From: Candidatus Saccharimonadota bacterium
Lineage (GTDB): Bacteria; Patescibacteriota; Saccharimonadia; Saccharimonadales; Saccharimonadaceae
Length of the DNA stretch: 32,000 nt
Assembly (NCBI GenBank): GCA_023898645.1
Contig: CP060232.1
Location: forward strand, 1,050,001 to 1,082,000
Reading direction: 5' to 3'
Under the pieces are notes generated by a model. It saw only the letters and a program-made list of their open reading frames with translations. It ran no database searches and was not told the DNA's origin. The translations under genes were made by a program, and so were the position numbers. The first letter of the stretch is position 1, and each line of letters begins with the position of its first letter. Below are positions 8,685-24,005 of the stretch, piece after piece.

Positions 8685-9377
8685 ATGGATCCAAACCAAC
8701 AACCAAATCAAACACCGCCCCAGCCACCGGTACAGCCGGCGGCCCCTCAGCCGCTTACAGGCTATGATACACCTCAGCCGTTAGCGTACGATCCGAACTA
8801 TCTTGATTCAATCGCACCGCCGCCACCAAGACCCTCGTTTTTTAGCGGTAGCTTCGGCAAAATATTCTTTGCGATGATTGGCGTTTTCGTACTCGCGGTT
8901 AGCCTAATTATCGCCTTCAGTGGCAACGATAACACGGCAGATCTCCAGCAGTTGGCGGTCCGATTAAACAATCTCTCTCTTACCGCGAAAAAGGTCCAGC
9001 CAAACCTAAAGAGCAACAACCTATCGACAGCTAATAGCACCTTTCAGGTTTGGATTACCGATAGTCAGCACCAATCAGTAACACTTCTGCAAGAAGCAGG
9101 TGTAAAAAAATCGCAATATGACAAAACGATGGTCGCAAGTGAAAAGACGTTATCTGATAATCTTAACGCAAAATTTGATGACGCTCGACTGAATGCGGTT
9201 TTAGACCGCGTTTACGCCAGCACGATGTCTTCCGAAACCGAAAAGTTAATTGTTCTGTTCAATGCCATGGGAAAAAACAGTAAAGCCAAAGCTATCCGTG
9301 ATTACGCAAATAGCACCAGTGCAAACTTAGCGCTCATACATAAAAGTTTCAATTCCTATGTCGACGACGGAAATTAA
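8685..9377 (+). CDS. hypothetical single-pass membrane protein with Pro/Gln-rich N-terminus
   Basis: 230-aa ORF. The N-terminal 50 aa are P/Q-rich. There is one TM helix, IFFAMIGVFVLAVSLIIAF, followed by a helical extracytoplasmic region. I recognise no motif. Confidence 0.6.
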   Translation: MDPNQQPNQTPPQPPVQPAAPQPLTGYDTPQPLAYDPNYLDSIAPPPPRPSFFSGSFGKIFFAMIGVFVLAVSLIIAFSGNDNTADLQQLAVRLNNLSLTAKKVQPNLKSNNLSTANSTFQVWITDSQHQSVTLLQEAGVKKSQYDKTMVASEKTLSDNLNAKFDDARLNAVLDRVYASTMSSETEKLIVLFNAMGKNSKAKAIRDYANSTSANLALIHKSFNSYVDDGN

Positions 9378-14811: not shown

Positions 14812-16416
14812 CTAGCGACCGGCAGCGTAATTCAAGATATCAACAGCTAATTTCGGTATATTGCCAACACTTGGTATACCCGGAAGACCATCAGGCATCT
14901 GATACGCGAGGTGGTACTTATATAACGCAGGTGCAGCGCGTAGCAAAATATCTTGACGCTGAGCGGCGTTAATATTCATATCTTTCATTACTTCATACCA
15001 GCCCTCGTTACTATGGGCGGAAATAGTACTAAGACCACCTGAAATATTCGGATTTGCTGGGGTAGTTTGAGGTAGTTGAGTACTATCGATACCATTGGGG
15101 TGCGCGCCTTCACTCTGAACAGAACCGGCATCTGGATTGTTTCCATGTAGCCATGCCCCGAGGTAATGCCCACCAAAAGCGATAGCAGCCCCAGCAGCGG
15201 TGCTACCGAGCACGCGAACTAATCGTTTCTTCTGTTGTTCAGTGGTGTCTTCCTCAACTGCGTTTGTAATTGCCCAGACGGCGCGACCAATCTTAGATCC
15301 AACCAATTCCAATTCGTTCAATTTGACGAATTTTTCGCCATGTTGGTCCTGTGGATCCAATTTCATGTCAAGCGTGTTATTAATTCGTGATTTAACTACC
15401 TTTGATGATAACAATCCCTTGGTACGCTGAGCTCGCTCCTGGCGATGCTTTGTTTCGAATACGCTATATACCTTTGCACCAGTCCATACGCCAGCAGCAC
15501 CAACGACTGCTAGTGAGCCACCAGTTGCAACCGTACCAACTGCAAATGCACCAGGTATAATGCCGTATGACAATACACGCCTACCCCATTTCTTCGCGCT
15601 AGAAGTCTCCGGCTCACCATTTTCTTTACGGCCTGCCATGAAGTTAATCGCCTTTCCAAGCAGTCGATTATTTTTGCCGTAGTTCATCGTAATGTTATTT
15701 GTCAGTTCATGAGCTAATTGAATTGTCCTCATGGCGATATGGTTGTCCATAGCCTCATATGAATCAAAATGGCCACCATTGATTTCTTGTGCTATACGCA
15801 TTTGCGTAGCGGCTTCGTATCGTTGCTTAGCTAGCGTAAAATGTAGCGCCTGCTTGCCTACATTGGAATAGGAATTCATAAAATCAACACCCATCATACG
15901 CTTTTGACGCTTAGCGTATAGCTCGGCTAGCTCCATACGCTTTTCTTCCTGATATTCGCGCGCCTCACGAATATTTTCCGGCTCGATGCTTGCGCGCTCT
16001 TTCTTTTGATTAATGTGTGCCTTTAGCTGATCTTCGTTTAATTTCGCCTCAGCTATCAGATGGCTGAACACCTGTAGTTCTTCATCATTAAGAGGTTTGG
16101 ACTCATCCTCACCAAGCCCGTCGAGCGTACGCGCATACAGTGCACTACTATCATCACCGTCAGGATTATTAAGCCACTCCGCAGCATCAAATTCTGCTTG
16201 TGGATTATGTCGAAGCAATGCCTCAAGATGACGAGCTACCTCTCGGAACTTACCCGCTGTGTATATCGGTCGTTCCATTGCTTCATCAGCGCCTGGAGTC
16301 ATCTCATCACTTTGAGGTAACGCACCGTCTCTACCCCCGTCTTCATGAGGGGCTGCAATGATTTCTCTCCACTCTTCCGCAGAAGCGCGTGAATATGTTT
16401 CAACGGATTGCGACAT
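14812..16416 (-). CDS. hypothetical protein with coiled-coil N-terminal half and two glycine-zipper hydrophobic segments
   Basis: 534-aa ORF. The Gly/Ala-rich hydrophobic stretches are GIIPGAFAVGTVATGGSLAVVGAAGVWTGA and LGSTAAGAAIAFGGHYLGAWL. I recognise no catalytic motif. Confidence 0.6.
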   Translation of the reverse strand: MSQSVETYSRASAEEWREIIAAPHEDGGRDGALPQSDEMTPGADEAMERPIYTAGKFREVARHLEALLRHNPQAEFDAAEWLNNPDGDDSSALYARTLDGLGEDESKPLNDEELQVFSHLIAEAKLNEDQLKAHINQKKERASIEPENIREAREYQEEKRMELAELYAKRQKRMMGVDFMNSYSNVGKQALHFTLAKQRYEAATQMRIAQEINGGHFDSYEAMDNHIAMRTIQLAHELTNNITMNYGKNNRLLGKAINFMAGRKENGEPETSSAKKWGRRVLSYGIIPGAFAVGTVATGGSLAVVGAAGVWTGAKVYSVFETKHRQERAQRTKGLLSSKVVKSRINNTLDMKLDPQDQHGEKFVKLNELELVGSKIGRAVWAITNAVEEDTTEQQKKRLVRVLGSTAAGAAIAFGGHYLGAWLHGNNPDAGSVQSEGAHPNGIDSTQLPQTTPANPNISGGLSTISAHSNEGWYEVMKDMNINAAQRQDILLRAAPALYKYHLAYQMPDGLPGIPSVGNIPKLAVDILNYAAGR

Positions 16417-17799: not shown

Positions 17800-18513
17800 T
17801 TACAGTGAAAACTTGATATTTCTCAGAATTGCAATTGCGACGATCCAAAAACCTAACAACCAAGCAATCGCGAGAGGCATATAGATTGGCGACAATACAT
17901 ATGTAACACCTAGCCACATAAATACAAGCGGTATATATACGACAACTCGGTCAAATGAACGCATGGTTGGAAATAGCCAACGAACAACAAGCCAATAAAG
18001 AACAGAGGCGAGAAAACCGAACGGTATATATACCTGCGCCACGGCCGCGCCAAACAGCACACCAACCAAGACAACCGCAACAAGAGTTGTAACACGATCA
18101 TTGACGCTAAAATTGCGCTCCGATTCATATGCATGCAGCTGCGAAGTAAGATCTTTATAGTCAACATACTCTATTTTTGCAGATGCAATACCGTCTAGTA
18201 CGCTACTGTGCGCAGCATTTCTCCTCCTTACAATAATTATCGGCATATGCTTAGCGTAGGCAATGCCAGCCTCAATCAGTCTATCTCCCGAAGGGCGATT
18301 CGAAACATCAACAAGAATCGCATTACATGCAGTGATTTCATCGTCTACCCTACCCCAGAGCGACTGCTCGTCGTCAAATGTTTGTTTGTAGTTCTCAACA
18401 TCGCGCACAAAACTAAAGTCAACCAACTTTGCCTCTCGAACGGCTTTACAAAGTGCCTCGACTTCTCCCTTATTATCCGTCCCCTCGAATCGAGATGCTA
18501 CGTATATTTTCAT
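17800..18513 (-). CDS. nucleoside 2-deoxyribosyltransferase-like domain fused to a C-terminal 4-TM domain
   Basis: The N-terminal part is about 135 aa: KIYVASRF ... ACNAILVDVSNRPSGDRLIEAGIAYAKHMPIIIV. It follows the NDT-family pattern iYlAGpF ... D.G...E.G.A.a.gkP. Four hydrophobic helices follow. The track start is 18537, but ATG 18513 has TATACT (18525..18520) 6 nt upstream. Confidence 0.6.
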   Translation of the reverse strand: MKIYVASRFEGTDNKGEVEALCKAVREAKLVDFSFVRDVENYKQTFDDEQSLWGRVDDEITACNAILVDVSNRPSGDRLIEAGIAYAKHMPIIIVRRRNAAHSSVLDGIASAKIEYVDYKDLTSQLHAYESERNFSVNDRVTTLVAVVLVGVLFGAAVAQVYIPFGFLASVLYWLVVRWLFPTMRSFDRVVVYIPLVFMWLGVTYVLSPIYMPLAIAWLLGFWIVAIAILRNIKFSL

Positions 18514-18598
18514 AACAATAGTATATAGGACTTTCATAACCTCTATAAGGTTCCTTTTTGTTAAACATACTTCGGACTTTCCTATGAATATACAGGAT

Positions 18599-19813
18599 CT
18601 AACTAAACAGCGTCAGCCATATAAGAGCAAAGTTCAACACGATAATTAACAGCGTTATAGTGCCTAATATATAGGTAGTAATTAGATGATTGACGCCTTC
18701 CTTCATAATGCGCCTGCTTGCCGTCACGAGAACCAACGGTATGAGCGCGAATGGTATACCAAAACTCAGCACGACCTGAGAAATAATGAGTGCAAACGTC
18801 GGATCAACACCAATCGCCACGATGAAAATCGCAGGTACGATCGTAACGAGACGTCGCCAGTGTAACGCGACCTTTTTGTGCAGCATACCCTCCATAATCA
18901 CCGCACCAGCATGGCCGCCCACTGCAGTCGAAGCAAAGCCCGATACTAACAAACTAAGACCGAACAGTGCGCCTACCAGACTCGATAAATCCGTATTCAA
19001 CACCTTATAAATTCCATCTAAAGTGTCTGTACCCGGCAGGCCGCGTAGTGCACTGGCAGCTAAGAGCAGCATGGAAATATTCACTCCACCGGCAATCACC
19101 ATGGCAACGCCTACGTCCGCTTTGGTCACGCGCAACAAATGCTTCAGTTCATCGCCCCATTTTTTACCATGGCGATCTCTACTCATGGCCGAGTGTAGAT
19201 AAACTACATGCGGCATAACTGTTGCTCCAAGCATTGCCGTCGCCAAAAGCAACATATCTGTGCCATGTAATTGCGGCACCATTCCCGCCAACAACCCACT
19301 CGTATCTGGCGGCCGCATAACCAGTCCAACGACAAATCCTAATGGAATCACCATAAGCAATCCCACCACAACTCGTTCAAATATCCTTTGACCCTGCGTG
19401 CTATAAATACGCAGTAGTAACATACTTATAATTCCGGTGATAACCGCGCCTACAAGCAGCGGTAAGCCGAATAAAATATTGAGTGCAATTGCTCCACCAA
19501 CTACTTCGGCAATGTCAGTAGAAATCGCCACCAACTCGGCCTGAAACCAGTACGCAATCCGACTTTTGCGCCCTAATTTTTCTGCAATGACCTCAGGCAA
19601 ACTTTTACCCGTTACTAACCCGACTTTTGCACTTAGATATTGAACCATCATGGCCATTAGGTTGGCCACTATTAACACCCATAGTAAAGAGTAGCCGTAC
19701 TTAGCACCAGCACTAAAATTAGCTGCAAAGTTACCCGGATCGACATAAGCAACCGCTGCCACGAACGCGGGTCCAAGCAATGCCAAGACTCGTCGAACTC
19801 GTAGTACCATCAC
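18599..19813 (-). CDS. mntH: Nramp-family divalent metal (Mn2+/Fe2+) transporter
   Basis: AYVDPGNFAANF (DPGN motif), MPHVVYLHS, and about 11 TM helices. The start is either GTG 19813 or the adjacent ATG 19810. It lies only 50 nt downstream of nrdB. Confidence 0.9.
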   Translation of the reverse strand: MMVLRVRRVLALLGPAFVAAVAYVDPGNFAANFSAGAKYGYSLLWVLIVANLMAMMVQYLSAKVGLVTGKSLPEVIAEKLGRKSRIAYWFQAELVAISTDIAEVVGGAIALNILFGLPLLVGAVITGIISMLLLRIYSTQGQRIFERVVVGLLMVIPLGFVVGLVMRPPDTSGLLAGMVPQLHGTDMLLLATAMLGATVMPHVVYLHSAMSRDRHGKKWGDELKHLLRVTKADVGVAMVIAGGVNISMLLLAASALRGLPGTDTLDGIYKVLNTDLSSLVGALFGLSLLVSGFASTAVGGHAGAVIMEGMLHKKVALHWRRLVTIVPAIFIVAIGVDPTFALIISQVVLSFGIPFALIPLVLVTASRRIMKEGVNHLITTYILGTITLLIIVLNFALIWLTLFS

Positions 19814-19863: not shown

Positions 19864-20850
19864 TTAGTCTTTTTTCGCGCCGTTTACTTCGTATGAAGTG
19901 TTCGTAGCCTCAAAGAAATTAACTAGCTGCAAGGTGTCGTTTGCCGTTGCCATCCATTTAGCCGGATTACCGACGTTATAGTGTGCATCAAACCCAAGCT
20001 CTTCCAGTCGACGGTCAGCCAAATACTTAACGTATTGGTTGATGTAGTCGCTGTTCAAACCTAAGATGCCGTTTGGCAATAAGTCTTTGTTGTATTGTTC
20101 TTCCATTTCAACACCGTCCAAAATCATCTGTTTGATTTCATCGGCAAACTCTTCAGTCTGCAAGTCTTCGTTTTCCTCAAGCACCGTTAAAATCAGGTTA
20201 ATGCCAAACTTTAGATGCAATGATTCGTCGCGAACAACCCAGTCAATGAGCGTACCAAAGTTACGTAGCAAATTACGCTGACGGAAGCTGAGCGCAACCA
20301 TAAAGCCACTGTAGAACCAGATGCCCTCAAGGATGATGTTGTACGCAATCATGTTGCGGATGAAGTCTTTTTTACCTTCGGTTGTGGTAATGTCGAGCGT
20401 TTCCTCGGTCATACGTTTGATGAATTTCGTCTCGAATTCTTCTTTTCGCGCCATACTCGGCGTCTCCACGTGCGCCGCGTATGATGCTTCGCGATCGATT
20501 GGGAAAGTCTCTAGGACATATTCAAAACTCATGCAGTGATTTGCCTCTTCCCACATTTGTTTTGCAAGATACAAGTGGCACTCTGCTGCGTTAACGTAAG
20601 GGTATACACCAAACGCCAGTGCCTTATTGACCAATAACTCATTTGGATTAAAGTAGCTCATCAAGAACGTTACTGCGTGCCGTTCTTCGTCGCTCATTTT
20701 CTTCCAGTCAGCTAAGTCCTGACCAAGCTGGACTTCATTTGGAAACCAAGTATTAGCAACCGCTTGATCGTACAAGTCCATCGCCCACTTATAGTGAACT
20801 GGTTTAAGTAGTAATCCGTCCTGGATACCAGTGCCGAGAATGCCTGCCAT
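19864..20850 (-). CDS. nrdB: ribonucleotide reductase small subunit, class Ic-like (R2c)
   Basis: Ferritin-like R2 ligand sets: NELLV (Glu), EEANH, ILEGIWFYSGF and RDESLH. Phe is at His+4, where class Ia/Ib have the radical Tyr. Confidence 0.9.
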   Translation of the reverse strand: MAGILGTGIQDGLLLKPVHYKWAMDLYDQAVANTWFPNEVQLGQDLADWKKMSDEERHAVTFLMSYFNPNELLVNKALAFGVYPYVNAAECHLYLAKQMWEEANHCMSFEYVLETFPIDREASYAAHVETPSMARKEEFETKFIKRMTEETLDITTTEGKKDFIRNMIAYNIILEGIWFYSGFMVALSFRQRNLLRNFGTLIDWVVRDESLHLKFGINLILTVLEENEDLQTEEFADEIKQMILDGVEMEEQYNKDLLPNGILGLNSDYINQYVKYLADRRLEELGFDAHYNVGNPAKWMATANDTLQLVNFFEATNTSYEVNGAKKD

Positions 20851-20914: not shown

Positions 20915-21088
20915 CTATTGGCAACCTTCACACATAGTAAGTTCAGCTGGATCAAGTGGTGCAGCAATAGTACCGTTTGCCTTAGCTTCTTCTTGAGCCT
21001 GATCCTGAGCAGCCCTCATAGCCGCGTCAATAGCGTCTAATTTCTGCTGCAGTGTCATGTTTTCTTCGATAATGTTTGATGCGTTCAT
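20915..21088 (-). CDS. small ORF (57 aa) ending in a C-terminal CxxC (..TMCEGCQ), located between nrdA and nrdB
   Basis: It is below the ORF-track size cut-off. I translated it by hand as MNASNIIEENMTLQQKLDAIDAAMRAAQDQAQEEAKANGTIAAPLDPAELTMCEGCQ*. A strong SD, AAGGGG, lies 7 nt upstream of ATG 21088. It has the same strand as nrdA and nrdB and lies within their operon. Confidence 0.55.
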   Translation of the reverse strand: MNASNIIEENMTLQQKLDAIDAAMRAAQDQAQEEAKANGTIAAPLDPAELTMCEGCQ

Positions 21089-21158
21089 TGCTTTTCCCCT
21101 TATACCCTTTTTACTTTATTTTCTTTGGTTTTTCGTTCTCATTTATCACCCGTCATAT

Positions 21159-23570
21159 TTAGGCTCCTTCACCAACTGTTTGTTTTTTCGCGAAGCCAAA
21201 GCCTGTTTTGCGTGGGCCACTGCCTGATAACGTCTCGGCCTTGTTCACTTTCACGGTACTCTGTTCGGCGGTATGACGCGGTTTAACGTGTAGATAGTAA
21301 GTTGTTTTCAGTCCCTTCCTCCACGCTGTCGCGTATATCTTTTCGTACTCATCAATGTCACGAGTTTCCAAATACATGTTGCGGCTTATAGCCTGATCAA
21401 CCCACTTCTGCGCCCTGGCGGCAACTTCGATAAATGCATAGGGACTTAGCTGGAAGCTTGTTTTGTAGACATCTTTAATGTGTTGCGGAATTGCCTCAAT
21501 TTGCTGTACATCACCCTGTAAACGAAGTACGTCATCTTTTACCTGCTCCCAAATACCTAGGTTCTTTAGGTCATGAACCAAATTAGTGTTCACTTCTAGG
21601 AACTTACCGTTTAACGTCGCACGGCTAAAGATTTGTGCAAACTGCGGATCAATCCCAGGGGTCGTCCCAGATACATGCGCATTGTTTGCCGTAGGTGCAA
21701 TAGCCATAAGAGTAGCATTGCGCATACCCTTTTTAACCTTTGGTCGTAGCTTCTCCCAGTCCAAACGTTTCTTCCGAGTGACATCAACTTTAACGTGACG
21801 ATCGAGGTCGAGCGTATCAAGTGTATCTATTGGTAATATACCCTTACTCCAGCTACTACCTTTATAAGTCGGGTAACTACCGCGTTCTTTTGCCAAGTCG
21901 GCACTAGCATCGATGGCATGATAACTAATGAACTCACACAACTGATCGATCAAATCGTATGCTTCTTCTGATTCATAACTGTGACCTAATTTTTCCAACA
22001 CATCAGAAAAGCCCATAATACCCAAGCCTACGGCACGATTCTGCAAGTTTGAGTGCATAGCCTGCTCAATCGGTGTATTAGTCAAATCACAAAGGTTGTC
22101 TAGCTGACGAATTGAAATCCGAACTGCCTTCTTTAGACGATCCCAGTCCCACGTTTTATCTTCTTTCAGGTGTACGGATAAATTGATACTCGACAAGTTA
22201 CAGACGGCAGTATTGTCTTTGTCTTGTGGAAGTGTAATCTCAGTACACAAATTACTATGATGAATCGTACCGGTATTGTTGTTAAGTGCACGGACGTTCA
22301 TGGTGTCCTTCCAGGTTAACCACGGATGACTGGTTGCTTGTAAGATGGTAAGAATCTGGCGGTATTGTTCGCGAGCATTAACCTTTGTAAAGTCACGAAG
22401 CTTACCTGCTTTCGCAAGTTTTACGTACTCGTTGTAACGCTTAGCAAATGCATCACCATAAAGCTCAACCAAATCCGGAGTCTCGGCAGGATCAAACAAA
22501 TACCAATCTTGGTCTTTTTGTGCGCGACGCATAAACTCATCGCTCAAAATAACGGCCGTATTAGCGATACGTGTCCGTAGGTACGGATCACCAGAGTTTT
22601 GTTTCAAATCCAAAAACTGCGGGAAGTTCAAGTGCCAGTTTTCCATGAATATGGCAGCTGCACCCTGTTTTTTGCCTTTGCGACTGACTGCGAACAATGC
22701 CGTATCGAGCATCTTGATAAATGGAATAGGGCCCGTCGACTCGCTATTAGTCGTTTTGACCGGACTACCGGCTGCACGTAGTTTCGTAACGCCTATACCG
22801 ATACCACCCGTGCCCTTAGCAATCCACATTGTGTCACGGATACCGCGAGCAATCGCTTCCATATCATCCTCGATATCGAACAAAAAGCAGTTAGAAAGCT
22901 GTGGAAACGAACCACCGGCATTGATACGAGTCGAGCCAGCAGGGTTGGCATCGAGCTTACTGATGTATTCATAGAATTCTAACGCCGTGGCTGTTGGGTC
23001 TTTTTCGAGCAGACTCAAGCCCATAGCTATGCGCATAGCAGAATATTGTGGCACTTCCATAGCCTCACCGCTGTTTTTACGCAGCGCATAGCGGTTACGA
23101 CTAGTGATGACACCTAGGTAATGCATAAGGCCGTCTCGGGCTGGATCAAGCGCCGCCGCCAACTTCTTTAAATCGAAGGTCTTGCTACTCATACGTGGAT
23201 CTAGTAGACCATCAGCAATGCCTTGCTTTAGATACTCCGGAAACTTCTTAACATGCAATTTACGCAGTTCGTCTGTATTCGCATAGCTGCCTAGCACCTT
23301 TCGATACACACTTCTCAACTGTAAACGCGCTGCAATAATGTCATAGTCTGGATCATCTTTGACATTCTGAAGCGCCGTATGTATGACGGCCTCGTTAAGC
23401 TGTTCGGTTGTAATACCGTCAAATAATGTCAATTGCAACTCTGTCGCGACTTGCACGACTTTTTGGATCTGGTCTTTTAGCCCCTCACTGGCTTCAACCA
23501 ATGCCAGGTTGACCTGGTTGGCGTCAAATGGTTCGCGGGTGCCATCGCGTTTAACCACATGTATGCTCAT
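21159..23570 (-). CDS. nrdA: ribonucleotide reductase large subunit (class I) with N-terminal ATP-cone
   Basis: ATP-cone VVKRDGTREPFD, active-site LSNCFLF, SNLCTEITL and AVCNLSSINL. SD AAGGGGG lies 4 nt upstream of the ATG. The C-terminal 40 aa contain no Cys. Confidence 0.95.
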   Translation of the reverse strand: MSIHVVKRDGTREPFDANQVNLALVEASEGLKDQIQKVVQVATELQLTLFDGITTEQLNEAVIHTALQNVKDDPDYDIIAARLQLRSVYRKVLGSYANTDELRKLHVKKFPEYLKQGIADGLLDPRMSSKTFDLKKLAAALDPARDGLMHYLGVITSRNRYALRKNSGEAMEVPQYSAMRIAMGLSLLEKDPTATALEFYEYISKLDANPAGSTRINAGGSFPQLSNCFLFDIEDDMEAIARGIRDTMWIAKGTGGIGIGVTKLRAAGSPVKTTNSESTGPIPFIKMLDTALFAVSRKGKKQGAAAIFMENWHLNFPQFLDLKQNSGDPYLRTRIANTAVILSDEFMRRAQKDQDWYLFDPAETPDLVELYGDAFAKRYNEYVKLAKAGKLRDFTKVNAREQYRQILTILQATSHPWLTWKDTMNVRALNNNTGTIHHSNLCTEITLPQDKDNTAVCNLSSINLSVHLKEDKTWDWDRLKKAVRISIRQLDNLCDLTNTPIEQAMHSNLQNRAVGLGIMGFSDVLEKLGHSYESEEAYDLIDQLCEFISYHAIDASADLAKERGSYPTYKGSSWSKGILPIDTLDTLDLDRHVKVDVTRKKRLDWEKLRPKVKKGMRNATLMAIAPTANNAHVSGTTPGIDPQFAQIFSRATLNGKFLEVNTNLVHDLKNLGIWEQVKDDVLRLQGDVQQIEAIPQHIKDVYKTSFQLSPYAFIEVAARAQKWVDQAISRNMYLETRDIDEYEKIYATAWRKGLKTTYYLHVKPRHTAEQSTVKVNKAETLSGSGPRKTGFGFAKKQTVGEGA

Positions 23571-23787
23571 ATTCCCCCTTTATTAACCTCACATATCACT
23601 ATGTAATACGCGTGGTGGAATGTTAGTTTTTATTAATTTTCCCTACACTTTACTTCCCGACTCCGGCGCGTCTCTCGTGCGCGTTTGGGGATGCAAGAAG
23701 AGGCCCAATCTAATTAGATTTGGCGGCGGTGTCTCTCCGTCTTGCAAAATGTGTATTTTTGTTGAACTACTACATATGTAGTGTCTA
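23571..23787 (-). promoter_or_regulatory. long 5' leader of nrdA with a GC-rich structured core (candidate cis-regulatory RNA)
   Basis: The predicted TSS is near 23787. The core at about 23641..23750 is much more GC-rich than its flanks. The 8-mer TTGCAAGA (23747..23740) pairs over 7 bp (TGCAAGA/TCTTGCA) with TCTTGCA (23698..23692), enclosing the AATCTAATTAGATT hairpin (23707..23720). A second GC-rich segment, CGCGCACGAGAGACGCGCCGGAGTCGGG, follows. Confidence 0.35.
23769..23784. promoter_or_regulatory. NrdR-box-like palindrome A (ACTACATATGTAGTGT)
   Basis: 12/16 match to the NrdR-box consensus as I recall it (ACACTATATATAGTGT). The core ACTACATATGTAGT is a perfect 14-bp palindrome. It lies just downstream of the predicted -10. 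Confidence 0.55.
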
Positions 23788-23793
23788 CATAGC

Positions 23794-23822
23794 ATTTTAG
23801 ACCCTATATGTATGGTTTTCAA
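23794..23822 (-). promoter_or_regulatory. candidate nrdA promoter TTGAAA-17-TAAAAT
   Basis: On the minus strand: TTGAAA (23822..23817), a 17-nt spacer that is almost exactly NrdR box B, TAAAAT (23799..23794). Confidence 0.5.
23801..23816. promoter_or_regulatory. NrdR-box-like palindrome B (ACCCTATATGTATGGT)
   Basis: 12/16 match to the consensus. Its centre is 32 bp from box A. It occupies the promoter spacer. Confidence 0.5.
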
Positions 23823-23858
23823 GCATTTTGTCTGTGTTTTTTTCACCACAAGCTTGAT

Positions 23859-23874
23859 AACACCTTATAGTGTT
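23859..23874. promoter_or_regulatory. degenerate palindrome C (AACACCTTATAGTGTT)
   Basis: ACAC-N6-GTGT rather than ACAC-N8-GTGT, so it is a poor NrdR box. Its centre is exactly 32 bp from box D. Confidence 0.3.
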
Positions 23875-23890
23875 GTAAATAATAAACATT

Positions 23891-23906
23891 ACGCTATATG
23901 TGGTGT
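23891..23906. promoter_or_regulatory. NrdR-box-like palindrome D (ACGCTATATGTGGTGT)
   Basis: 13/16 match to the consensus. Confidence 0.5.
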
Positions 23907-24005
23907 ACGAATTTTGTTCTAAAGATATAATCGCGACCCCAATAACCACTTGATACCAAAAATTTACTGGATATCACTCAGCATAAGCGTTATTATGTAA
24001 CTTAA

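Follow-up and report, generated by a model that had tools for sequence, protein, structure and literature searches.

Comparative sequence evidence that the redox tail of class I RNR NrdA is a separate small protein in Saccharibacteria

Introduction

The large subunit (R1) of class I RNR carries a dithiol in its C-terminal tail. With every turnover, this dithiol re-reduces the active-site disulfide, and it is reduced in turn by thioredoxin, glutaredoxin or NrdH. The pair is located in cis, as C754/C759 in E. coli and as a CX2C motif in eukaryotes. For yeast Rnr1, it has been reported that a protomer is reduced by the tail of its neighbour, indicating that a non-covalent geometry is tolerated. 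It is also known that nrd operons elsewhere encode small accessory redox proteins, such as YfaE, NrdI and NrdH.

The class II enzyme NrdJa/NrdJb of P. aeruginosa and other Proteobacteria is a split RNR (Crona et al. 2015, PMC4520616; Burnim et al. 2022, PMC9669993). Its two chains bind each other with Kd values of 54-690 nM. NrdJb carries the C-terminal Cys residues, and its thiol-disulfide exchange for NrdJa with the physiological reductant was shown experimentally (PMC4520616). For Aeromonas phage Aeh1, a fragmented nrdA (NrdA-a/NrdA-b) has been described (PMC3045599). Dedicated RNR redoxins include NrdH and a Grx domain fused to NrdB in Facklamia ignava, and NrdA of all class I RNRs has been stated to contain the redox Cys pair (PMC6187632). 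In the literature, we found no description of a split class I RNR tail or of Saccharibacteria RNR.

Here, we analysed an nrd locus in a stretch of 32,000 nucleotides of a Candidatus Saccharimonadota bacterium (contig CP060232.1, positions 1,050,001 to 1,082,000; hereafter the window). An earlier note on this DNA had suggested that the R1 redox tail was split off as a stand-alone mini-protein acting in trans, an arrangement of which its author knew no description. The split is indeed new for class I, but it is not without parallel, since the class II precedent NrdJa/NrdJb has been published (PMC4520616).

Results

The nrdA gene (21159..23570, minus strand, as are all features described below) encodes a class I RNR catalytic subunit of 803 aa, based on Pfam and NCBIfam matches and on alignment to P. 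aeruginosa NrdA (5im3). The protein consists of an ATP-cone, an all-alpha domain and a ten-stranded barrel (Pfam PF03477, PF00317 and PF02867, the last matching with an E value of 1.6e-163), and it scores 1294 bits against NCBIfam PRK06539 (cutoff 988), covering model positions 1-790 of 822. The class I models were its best match and a partner nrdB gene is present, which argues against an adenosylcobalamin-dependent class II enzyme. The Cys residues of NrdA are C228, C442, C457, C494 and C545, with no others. The active-site trio C228, C442 and C457 is kept, C442 lying inside NLCTE (residues 440-444), and the YY dyad for radical transfer is found at residues 758-759; the active-site Cys residues, NLCTE and the dyad all align with those of 5im3. 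We take the E. coli counterparts of the trio to be C225, C439 and C462.

The C-terminal tail of NrdA (residues 758-803, 21162..21299) reads YYLHVKPRH...GFGFAKKQTVGEGA and ends in ...YYLHVKPRHTAEQSTVKVNKAETLSGSGPRKTGFGFAKKQTVGEGA before the stop. As the earlier note had observed, the C-terminal Cys pair is missing: no Cys occurs in the 46 residues after YYL, so that the cis redox pair of class I NrdA is absent from the window protein, and a survey of the Cys positions revealed no second pair elsewhere in NrdA. Comparison with fused relatives indicated that the proximal part of the tail and an R/K-x-GFGFAKK motif are kept, while the distal linker and the Cys pair are gone. The tail Cys residues are likewise absent in 53 other Cys-less Saccharibacteria loci with a readable NrdA tail, and a single locus (L059) is the exception among the Saccharibacteria loci examined. 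Short Cys-less NrdA tails were also observed in other Patescibacteria (P0254 and P0305), in which P0287 is a further short-tailed NrdA. Since NrdA retains C228, C442 and C457 without tail Cys residues, the active-site disulfide is expected to form still and to need reduction.

The nrdA stop codon (TAA, 21161..21159) is followed by a spacer of 70 nt and then by a small gene (20915..21088), which encodes a 57-aa protein (MNASNIIEENMTLQQKLDAIDAAMRAAQDQAQEEAKANGTIAAPLDPAELTMCEGCQ) with the C-terminus LDPAELTMCEGCQ. A Shine-Dalgarno-like AAGGGG (21096..21101) lies 7 nt before its ATG (21088), and the ATG of nrdB (20850) is located 64 nt past the small ORF. The frame of the small ORF differs from that of nrdA and contains a TAA (21118..21116) upstream of the ATG, and a simple readthrough or a single frameshift does not join the two ORFs. 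Every sequence statement of the earlier note, the CEGCQ end included, was confirmed. It had regarded the small ORF as unannotated, but GenBank lists it as USN96518.1, 'hypothetical protein H6797_05645'.

The 57-aa protein ends in a redox motif, DPAELTMCEGCQ (20918..20953), which contains Cys53 and Cys56, one residue before the stop, and is homologous to the ends of contiguous NrdA tails. AlphaFold2 predicted a single amphipathic helix for residues 13-37 (20978..21052; block pLDDT 73-76), while the CxxC end was non-helical past residue 50 and had low pLDDT (block mean about 50). Thus, as in RNR tails, the CxxC motif lies very close to the end of a flexible segment (...CEGCQ), and the combination of a single helix with an unstructured Cys end fits the expectation for a tethering element plus a flexible tail. 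A conserved stripe on the helix, formed by L13, K16, L17, I20, A23/M24, A27/Q28 and A31 and including invariant alignment columns, is proposed from this model as a docking or dimerisation element. No known domain was found in the protein with Pfam and NCBIfam. Its CxxC motif sits at the extreme C-terminus, and neither a family match nor a PDB sequence match suggested a thioredoxin fold. A YfaE-type [2Fe-2S] ferredoxin is likewise not indicated, since the protein contains two Cys residues rather than four and no ferredoxin domain. When we searched the PDB with the small-ORF profile, only chance matches to coiled-coil fragments were obtained, and the P. aeruginosa NrdA tail was not picked up.

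The nrdB gene (19864..20850) encodes the radical-generating subunit of 328 aa (Pfam/NCBIfam), and its best PDB match is C. trachomatis R2c (1syy). In the alignment, EEANHCMSF falls on EEAVHTHTF and NELLV on AESLV of 1syy. NrdB has Phe at the position of the radical Tyr and Glu as the first metal ligand, as expected for R2c, and on these sequence features we classify it as class Ic-like. The Mn transporter gene mntH comes after nrdB. A terminator scan found no terminator-like site on the minus strand between nrdA, the small ORF and nrdB, which is consistent with a single operon, and an Rfam scan detected no structured RNA or recoding signal in the spacers of the nrd region. The small protein is probably made from the same operon as nrdA in the window. 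The best sigma-70-like promoter match upstream of nrdA (23794..23822) is a consensus match only and not evidence of function. No thioredoxin, glutaredoxin or NrdH gene is present within the window. The window does contain a gene for MsrB, an enzyme which relies on thioredoxin in other bacteria.

The arrangement was then compared among 52 complete loci with a Cys-less NrdA, comprising 48 GTDB species representatives, three metagenome contigs and the window. The small gene is found within the nrd cluster in all 52. The earlier note had called for checking its conservation at the nrdA-nrdB junction, and this holds for 44 loci with the order nrdA-small-nrdB; in the other 8, the gene follows nrdB, a position that rules out frameshifting, readthrough and misassembly. 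The length and frame of the spacer between nrdA and the small gene vary freely among loci. In about 10 loci, the small ORF lies in the nrdA frame behind one stop, a fraction about as large as chance predicts. When the ORFs of all loci were collected in six frames, the ending DP-x(4-6)-C-x-x-C-x-stop was seen in one and only one small ORF of each locus, and its only other occurrence was the end of the fused NrdA of L059. A gene for a PNPOx-like flavoprotein adjoins the small gene in one subclade, and short paralogs of the small gene are present in two loci (L047 and L051).

The small ORF is conserved rather than a chance reading frame. In the 51 species-level orthologs, the residues KL, I and DP and both Cys residues are invariant, and 50 of the 51 have a G-rich SD-like motif ahead of the ATG. 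The median dN/dS of the small gene is 0.19, indicating purifying selection, and the variability at the three codon positions is 0.20/0.15/0.46. Homologs numbered 66 in 90%-identity clusters, and the profile search, covering 1.84 billion representatives, gave 124 clusters at 50% identity; about 118 of these are small proteins of 34-144 aa, and the remaining six are long, unrelated repeat proteins. CxxC followed by 0-2 residues forms the end of 150 of the 181 retrieved family members, and most of the others look truncated or frameshifted. Both Cys residues are lost in two family clusters (P0122 and P0141), which, if they are functional genes, would need another explanation.

Contiguous NrdA proteins with a Cys-containing tail were found in two loci, L059, which is labelled Saccharibacteria, and L066, on a Simkania contig, and neither has a small gene. 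The NrdA of L059 ends in DPMEFLVCDSCQ. Of the 120 closest relatives of this fused tail, 111 have a contiguous tail with CxxC plus one residue at the end; several of these NrdA fragments are labelled Paceibacterota or Parcubacteria, and nearly all end in P.DPxxxxxCxxC[Q/E]. The fused tails run 40-150 residues further than the Cys-less ones, to DPxxxxxCxxCQ. The earlier note had asked whether the small ORF aligns to R1 tails, and its profile gave a C-terminally anchored match in 88 of the 111 fused tails (E <= 0.01; best 1e-7), while nothing was matched in the tail interiors or in shuffled tails used as controls. The homology is confined to the ~20 residues at the C-terminus. For the helical two-thirds of the small protein, no counterpart could be detected in the fused tails, and among the 1.84 billion representatives, no protein of NrdA length, and hence no fused intermediate, carries the helix. 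A derivation of the helix from the interior of a fused tail was rejected, as the signal was no better than with shuffled sequences. An 'S.NP..Q' likeness of two diverged small ORFs (L034 and L035) to fused tails was also dismissed, as it occurs in 2 of the 111 tails and is too rare. The small gene and a cis Cys pair are mutually exclusive, the gene being found in each of the 52 Cys-less loci and in neither of the two fused ones.

A related contiguous NrdA had been named in the earlier note as a finding that would turn the locus into an assembly or sequencing error. Such a protein does exist in L059, but it does not reveal an error here: it is only 55-60% identical and marks the ancestral contiguous state.

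Discussion

These observations are quite likely explained by a fission of the gene for the class I RNR large subunit, with the detached redox tail acting in trans. The comparative sequence data support the view that the dithiol tail of NrdA is a separate conserved protein in Saccharibacteria. The split-off of the R1 tail put forward in the earlier note is thus borne out by the motif homology, the complementary distribution, the selection on the small gene and its independent position. The ancestral NrdA would have had a long flexible tail ending in P-x-DP-x5-C-x-x-C-[Q/E], which bore the dithiol. In most Saccharibacteria, NrdA is cut short just past the conserved GFGFAKK, with the dithiol end being a separate protein of ~57 aa. 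First, the helix of the mini-protein would dock on NrdA or dimerise, in place of the covalent tether. Second, the reduced Cys53/Cys56 pair would enter the active site and reduce the C228-C457 disulfide. Finally, the oxidised mini-protein would be re-reduced by the cellular thioredoxin-type system. The mini-protein probably carries electrons in trans, taking them from a thioredoxin-type reductant and passing them to the active site of NrdA; here, we infer its binding to NrdA, this transfer and which reductant acts upstream.

A bolder reading, which we regard as rather unlikely, is that the 57-aa protein is a free, RNR-dedicated 'micro-redoxin' without a thioredoxin fold, that is, a dithiol carrier free to diffuse, with its abundance or redox state regulated apart from NrdA. 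If so, the mini-protein would determine how fast these ultra-small episymbionts make dNTPs and might serve other disulfide-forming enzymes, and its charging by a non-canonical reductant would be possible, for example by the neighbouring PNPOx-like flavoprotein of one subclade. The split would then be a new regulatory node and not a neutral fission.

It is improbable, in our estimate, that the tail-derived mini-protein is now mainly a regulator, such as a redox-sensing inhibitor or an RNR assembly factor, with another reductant serving the active site. A conserved helix without counterpart in the fused tails and the existence of short paralogs and Cys-less variants would suit such a role, and the authors of the NrdJa/NrdJb work suggested that splitting could add a regulatory level (PMC4520616). 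However, the conservation of both Cys residues and the DP motif in every species-level ortholog argues that the ancestral redox chemistry was retained, and NrdA offers no alternative Cys pair.

We see even less chance that the small protein serves the class Ic-like NrdB in metal handling or cofactor maintenance, comparable to YfaE or NrdI, and binds Mn, Fe or an Fe-S cluster with its Cys residues, perhaps as a dimer, leaving the direct reduction of NrdA to a redoxin or a small molecule. The class Ic-like character of NrdB, the mntH gene after it and the small accessory redox proteins of other nrd operons are in line with this reading, and the M-C-x-G-C stretch loosely resembles heavy-metal-binding MxCxxC motifs. 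The Met before the Cys, however, is not conserved, being I, A, G or L in orthologs, and we rejected the heavy-metal-binding motif on this ground. The protein has two Cys residues only and no ferredoxin, flavodoxin or HMA domain. Moreover, its Cys motif, DP prefix, spacing and position one residue from the stop match the contiguous NrdA tails of the same clade, and the gene occurs in precisely those loci whose NrdA no longer has a pair.

A recoding event, by which readthrough or frameshifting fuses NrdA with the small ORF and keeps the tail in cis, is very improbable. The two ORFs are same-strand neighbours a short spacer apart, and in some loci they share a frame with one stop between them, but in the window a -1 or +1 shift still meets the TAA at 21118..21116, no Rfam or other structured element occurs in the spacer, spacer length and frame are unconstrained, nrdB intervenes in 8 loci, and a conserved SD and ATG stand ahead of the small ORF. 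Finally, there is next to no chance that a sequencing, assembly or annotation artefact or a pseudogene is at work, with an indel or nonsense error detaching the tail of a truly contiguous nrdA in this MAG: the distant L059 and other Patescibacteria do have a contiguous NrdA with the same terminal motif, and the small ORF is in the nrdA frame behind a single stop in about 10 loci, but that fraction is at about chance level, the same arrangement with an identical small protein was found in six contigs from six different sequencing runs, the split is common to all complete Cys-less loci, the window ORF lies in another frame behind an in-frame stop, the gene can follow nrdB, and it has its own start signals and is under purifying selection, and the comparative data already refute this reading.

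Among the sampled Saccharibacteria, the results reveal a lineage-wide exception to the cis pair rule, with the pair residing in the product of its own gene. In this way, a function can be annotated for a widespread 'hypothetical protein' of Saccharibacteria, and seemingly defective NrdA sequences are explained. Since the cis tail is disordered, its search for the active site is hard to observe, and the mini-protein, with its 57 aa, would offer a minimal system made by nature in which to study how the tail reaches the active site and its reductant. As RNR is essential, the docking of the mini-protein could also be a weak point specific to this lineage, whose members include episymbionts of the human mouth.

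Comparison with known systems places NrdJa/NrdJb closest. In both cases, the catalytic chain lacks the C-terminal Cys residues, an adjacent gene of the same operon encodes a product ending in a redox pair, and this second polypeptide goes back to the C-terminal portion of an ancestor that was a single chain. However, NrdJa/NrdJb is a B12-dependent class II enzyme, whereas the Saccharibacteria system is class I and class Ic-like; the Saccharibacteria protein, with 57 aa, one helix and two Cys residues, has no detectable sequence relationship to NrdJb, and its gene can also follow nrdB. Taken together, the two systems show that the redox module was detached independently in two RNR classes.

Compared with the cis tail of class I R1, the small protein has the same CxxC motif one residue from the stop and presumably the same chemistry, but it is not covalently attached to NrdA and contains a conserved helix that the fused tails lack. 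The Cys-less NrdA of Saccharibacteria contradicts the published generalisation on the class I pair (PMC6187632). Compared with NrdH and the Grx domain, the protein is likewise a small CxxC protein encoded with nrd genes that would deliver electrons to RNR. Those proteins have a thioredoxin fold and reduce the NrdA tail, whereas the 57-aa protein has no such fold and is equivalent to the tail, which receives the electrons one step later. The Aeh1 system resembles that of Saccharibacteria in that a class I nrdA gives rise to two polypeptides, which have to come together again. The viral split is said to result from a mobile homing-endonuclease insertion and to lie within the catalytic body, whereas the split in Saccharibacteria separates the redox tail.

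The nrd locus

In the window, nrdA (23570..21159, minus strand) encodes an 803-aa protein with Pfam and NCBIfam matches to the ATP-cone, the all-alpha domain and the RNR barrel, and NCBIfam PRK06539 matches it with 1294 bits over model positions 1-790 of 822 only. The cysteines of NrdA are C228, C442 (inside NLCTE), C457, C494 and C545. In an alignment, C228, C442 and C457 correspond to the P. aeruginosa NrdA active-site cysteines, so that an active-site disulfide is still formed at each turnover. The redox pair in cis is lost, with no cysteine among the 46 residues past the YY dyad (YYLHVKPRH...GFGFAKKQTVGEGA). The small ORF (21088..20915, minus strand) begins 70 nt after the nrdA stop with AAGGGG 7 nt upstream, lies in a different frame from nrdA with TAA in its own frame at 21118..21116, and encodes a 57-aa protein ending in LDPAELTMCEGCQ, which provides a CxxC in trans. 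The sequence details given in an earlier note are all correct, but it called the ORF unannotated, while GenBank lists it as a hypothetical protein (USN96518.1). No terminator-like sites or Rfam elements were found between nrdA, the small ORF and nrdB when the window was scanned.

NrdB (20850..19864, minus strand) is class Ic-like: C. trachomatis R2c (1syy) is its closest PDB match, Phe takes the place of the radical Tyr, and the first ligand is Glu. An Nramp/MntH manganese transporter gene (18599-19813, minus strand) lies directly after nrdB, which suggests an operon of class Ic-like nrdB and mntH that also supplies Mn. Upstream of nrdA, the AT-rich palindromes ACACCACATATAGCGT, ACACTATAAGGTGT and ACACTACATATGTAGT (about 23760-23910, minus strand) resemble NrdR boxes; a search of this region with the NrdR-box consensus, allowing 3 mismatches, gave one match, no more than expected by chance. 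ORFs of 245, 534 and 230 aa (17800-18537, minus; 14812-16416, minus; 8685-9377, plus) have no Pfam match, the first lying between mntH and zwf. The source MAG is labelled 'Candidatus Nomurabacteria bacterium' in GenBank (USN96518.1) and its close nrd-locus relatives are nearly all labelled Saccharibacteria; the GenBank label is probably wrong.

Conservation of the small gene

The identical small protein is encoded on 11 contigs, and the order nrdA-small-nrdB is shared by six contigs, each from a different sequencing run. A word-indexed search gave 66 homologs. When 1.84 billion cluster representatives were searched exhaustively with a profile, 124 clusters matched: about 118 are small proteins (34-144 aa), and six long matches were rejected as unrelated repeat proteins. 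CxxC followed by 0-2 residues ends 150 of the 181 retrieved family members, and the others mostly look truncated or frameshifted, with CxxxC in one lineage. Two family clusters, P0122 and P0141, have lost both cysteines (...APADSALVTIVSGE) and represent either genes in decay or a variant that does something else.

Scanning GTDB species representatives with NrdA yielded 54 loci, almost all of which carry a Saccharibacteria label. A Cys-less NrdA occurs at 52 complete loci, namely the window, three metagenome contigs and 48 from GTDB; the remaining four GTDB loci are interrupted by contig ends. Each of the 52 has, within the nrd cluster, a single small ORF with the ending DP-x(4-7)-C-x-x(-x)-C-x-stop, between nrdA and nrdB in 44 and after nrdB in 8. 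The small gene is thus kept at every complete Cys-less Saccharibacteria locus examined. Among 45 core orthologs the gene is under selection, with a median pairwise dN/dS of 0.19, every usable pair below 1, and variability of 0.20, 0.15 and 0.46 at codon positions 1, 2 and 3. Of 51 orthologs, 50 have a G-rich Shine-Dalgarno-like motif ahead of their ATG. The agreement of six runs, the occurrence at all complete loci, the dN/dS and the Shine-Dalgarno-like motif effectively exclude an artefact or pseudogene; the small gene is real and conserved.

Recoding by readthrough or frameshifting, which would join NrdA and the small ORF, is effectively excluded as well, since at the 8 loci with the small gene after nrdB neither these events nor misassembly of nrdA can explain the arrangement. 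The small ORF is in the nrdA frame with a single stop between at L029, L033, L036, L045, L046, L047, L051, L058 and L064, a frequency at about chance level.

Predicted structure of the mini-protein

AlphaFold2 with the family alignment predicted one helix at residues 13-37 (block pLDDT 73-76) and no structure elsewhere. The invariant or nearly invariant M11, T12, L13, K16, L17, A19, I20, A23, A27, Q28 and A31 form a stripe on one face of the predicted helix, as expected of an amphipathic helix that would serve docking or dimerisation. The design hxxKLxxIAxxhxxxQ ... DPxDxxxCEGCQ is kept in five diverged orthologs (L034, L035, L045, L055 and L064). Profile comparison detected no counterpart of the helix in fused NrdA tails; it is either new or diverged past recognition. 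A thioredoxin-fold redoxin, a YfaE-type ferredoxin and an HMA metal-binding domain were rejected as its identity from family and PDB searches, ortholog conservation and AlphaFold2. In one subclade, short paralogs downstream of nrdB (L047 8827-9039 and L051 10107-10304, e.g. MGQTITSADMTLEQKLQAIADAIRALESTNTNTVLCGECV) have the helix and the terminal CxxC-x and lack the DP motif, and L043 8855-8962 and L046 9242-9406 match the small protein over the helix part only.

Probable origin of the split

A contiguous NrdA is found in L059 (OZ246398, labelled Saccharibacteria), only 55-60% identical to the NrdA of other loci. Its tail comprises 150 residues of low complexity and finishes with ...DGPVDPMEFLVCDSCQ; nrdB begins 24 nt further on and the locus has no small ORF. 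The earlier note had said that such a relative would make this locus an assembly or sequencing error; the relative exists, but the six-run agreement speaks against the error. A cis tail, here with the end ...EEGCESCQ, is likewise present in the NrdA of a Simkania contig (L066).

We then took the 120 best matches of the L059 NrdA C-terminal 260 residues, several of them named Paceibacterota, Parcubacteria or Patescibacteria. In 111 of these 120, CxxC plus one residue ends a tail of roughly 70-210 residues, nearly always within P-x-DP-x5-C-x-x-C-[Q/E], the same motif as the end of the small protein (APLDPAELTMCEGCQ). When a profile was built from the 51 small proteins, 88 of the 111 fused tails matched it with E <= 0.01 (best 1e-7, 25 bits). 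Every match was anchored at the C-terminal residue and spanned about the last 20 positions, and neither fused-tail interiors nor shuffled tails matched. This motif homology and the complementary distribution of the cis tail and the small gene support the earlier proposal that the R1 redox tail was split off as a separate small protein.

The proximal part of the tail, with its K/R-x-GF[G/A] motif, is still present in split NrdAs, and fused tails share this motif. This basic-x-GF[G/A] motif, about 25 residues past YYL (21162-21200, minus strand), is conserved in both forms, with three copies in L059, and is the final conserved element ahead of the fission point. In a rough NJ tree, split NrdAs cluster tightly (at least 66% identity) and L059 is on a long branch. 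The parsimonious reading of these sequences is that fused NrdA is ancestral and the small gene a product of fission: NrdA would have been cut past the GFGFAKK motif in the ancestor of most Saccharibacteria, the distal tail end becoming its own cistron, which in some lineages would later have relocated behind nrdB. The NrdA fragments P0254, P0287 and P0305, relatives of the fused Patescibacteria tails, lack Cys in their short tails, which stop soon after GFG/GFA (...MTGKRGFGTIKTAAAG), and may be independent fissions. The N-termini of diverged small ORFs in L034 (7325-7630, MAISKNPKIQ...) and L035 (3638-3898, MSTSSNPKIQ...) are similar to '..IMAKLSxNPxxQ', an element that precedes the Cys motif in a few fused tails (P0197, P0232, P0257). 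This likeness might be a remnant of the fission point, but by the pattern used the element occurs in only 2 of 111 tails, with P0257 as an additional near-match by eye.

Proposed function

The tail dithiol reduces the RNR active-site disulfide and is re-reduced by thioredoxin, glutaredoxin or NrdH (PMC6187632, PMC9669993). We suggest that the mini-protein does this job in trans, its helix standing in for the covalent tether; it would bind NrdA, pass electrons to the active site and be recharged by a reductant. A mainly regulatory role is improbable, as both cysteines and the DP motif are invariant, arguing for retained redox chemistry. In principle the mini-protein could instead serve the class Ic-like NrdB in metal or cofactor handling, but this leaves unexplained both the identity of the motif with the NrdA tail end and the presence of the gene exactly where NrdA lost its own pair. 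We consider fission with a shuttle acting in trans the probable explanation, the remaining uncertainty being biochemical.

The window was found to contain no redoxin gene; it does encode MsrB, which is thioredoxin-dependent in other bacteria. At six of the 8 loci with the small gene after nrdB, a gene of about 131-135 aa lies directly upstream of it (L007 4547-4942, L037 8403-8825, L038 5637-6074, L039 9328-9750, L053 8823-9233, L060 9035-9442). The L007 copy has weak PNPOx-family Pfam matches and the other five are similar by eye; this PNPOx-like product may be a partner or reductant. At the same place, L039 and L060 have an additional gene of about 205 aa.

Comparison with known systems

The redox pair has been stated to be in NrdA of all class I RNRs (PMC6187632), and CXXC ends most class I tails (PMC9669993). 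Our full-text literature search turned up no account of a split tail in class I or of the Saccharibacteria RNR. The nearest known parallel is the split RNR of class II, NrdJa/NrdJb, in which the 229-aa NrdJb bears the C-terminal cysteines and thiol-disulfide exchange for NrdJa has been demonstrated (PMC4520616). In contrast, the RNR described here is class I; split RNRs are a known kind, and this one is a class I form with a minimal tail protein of 57 aa.
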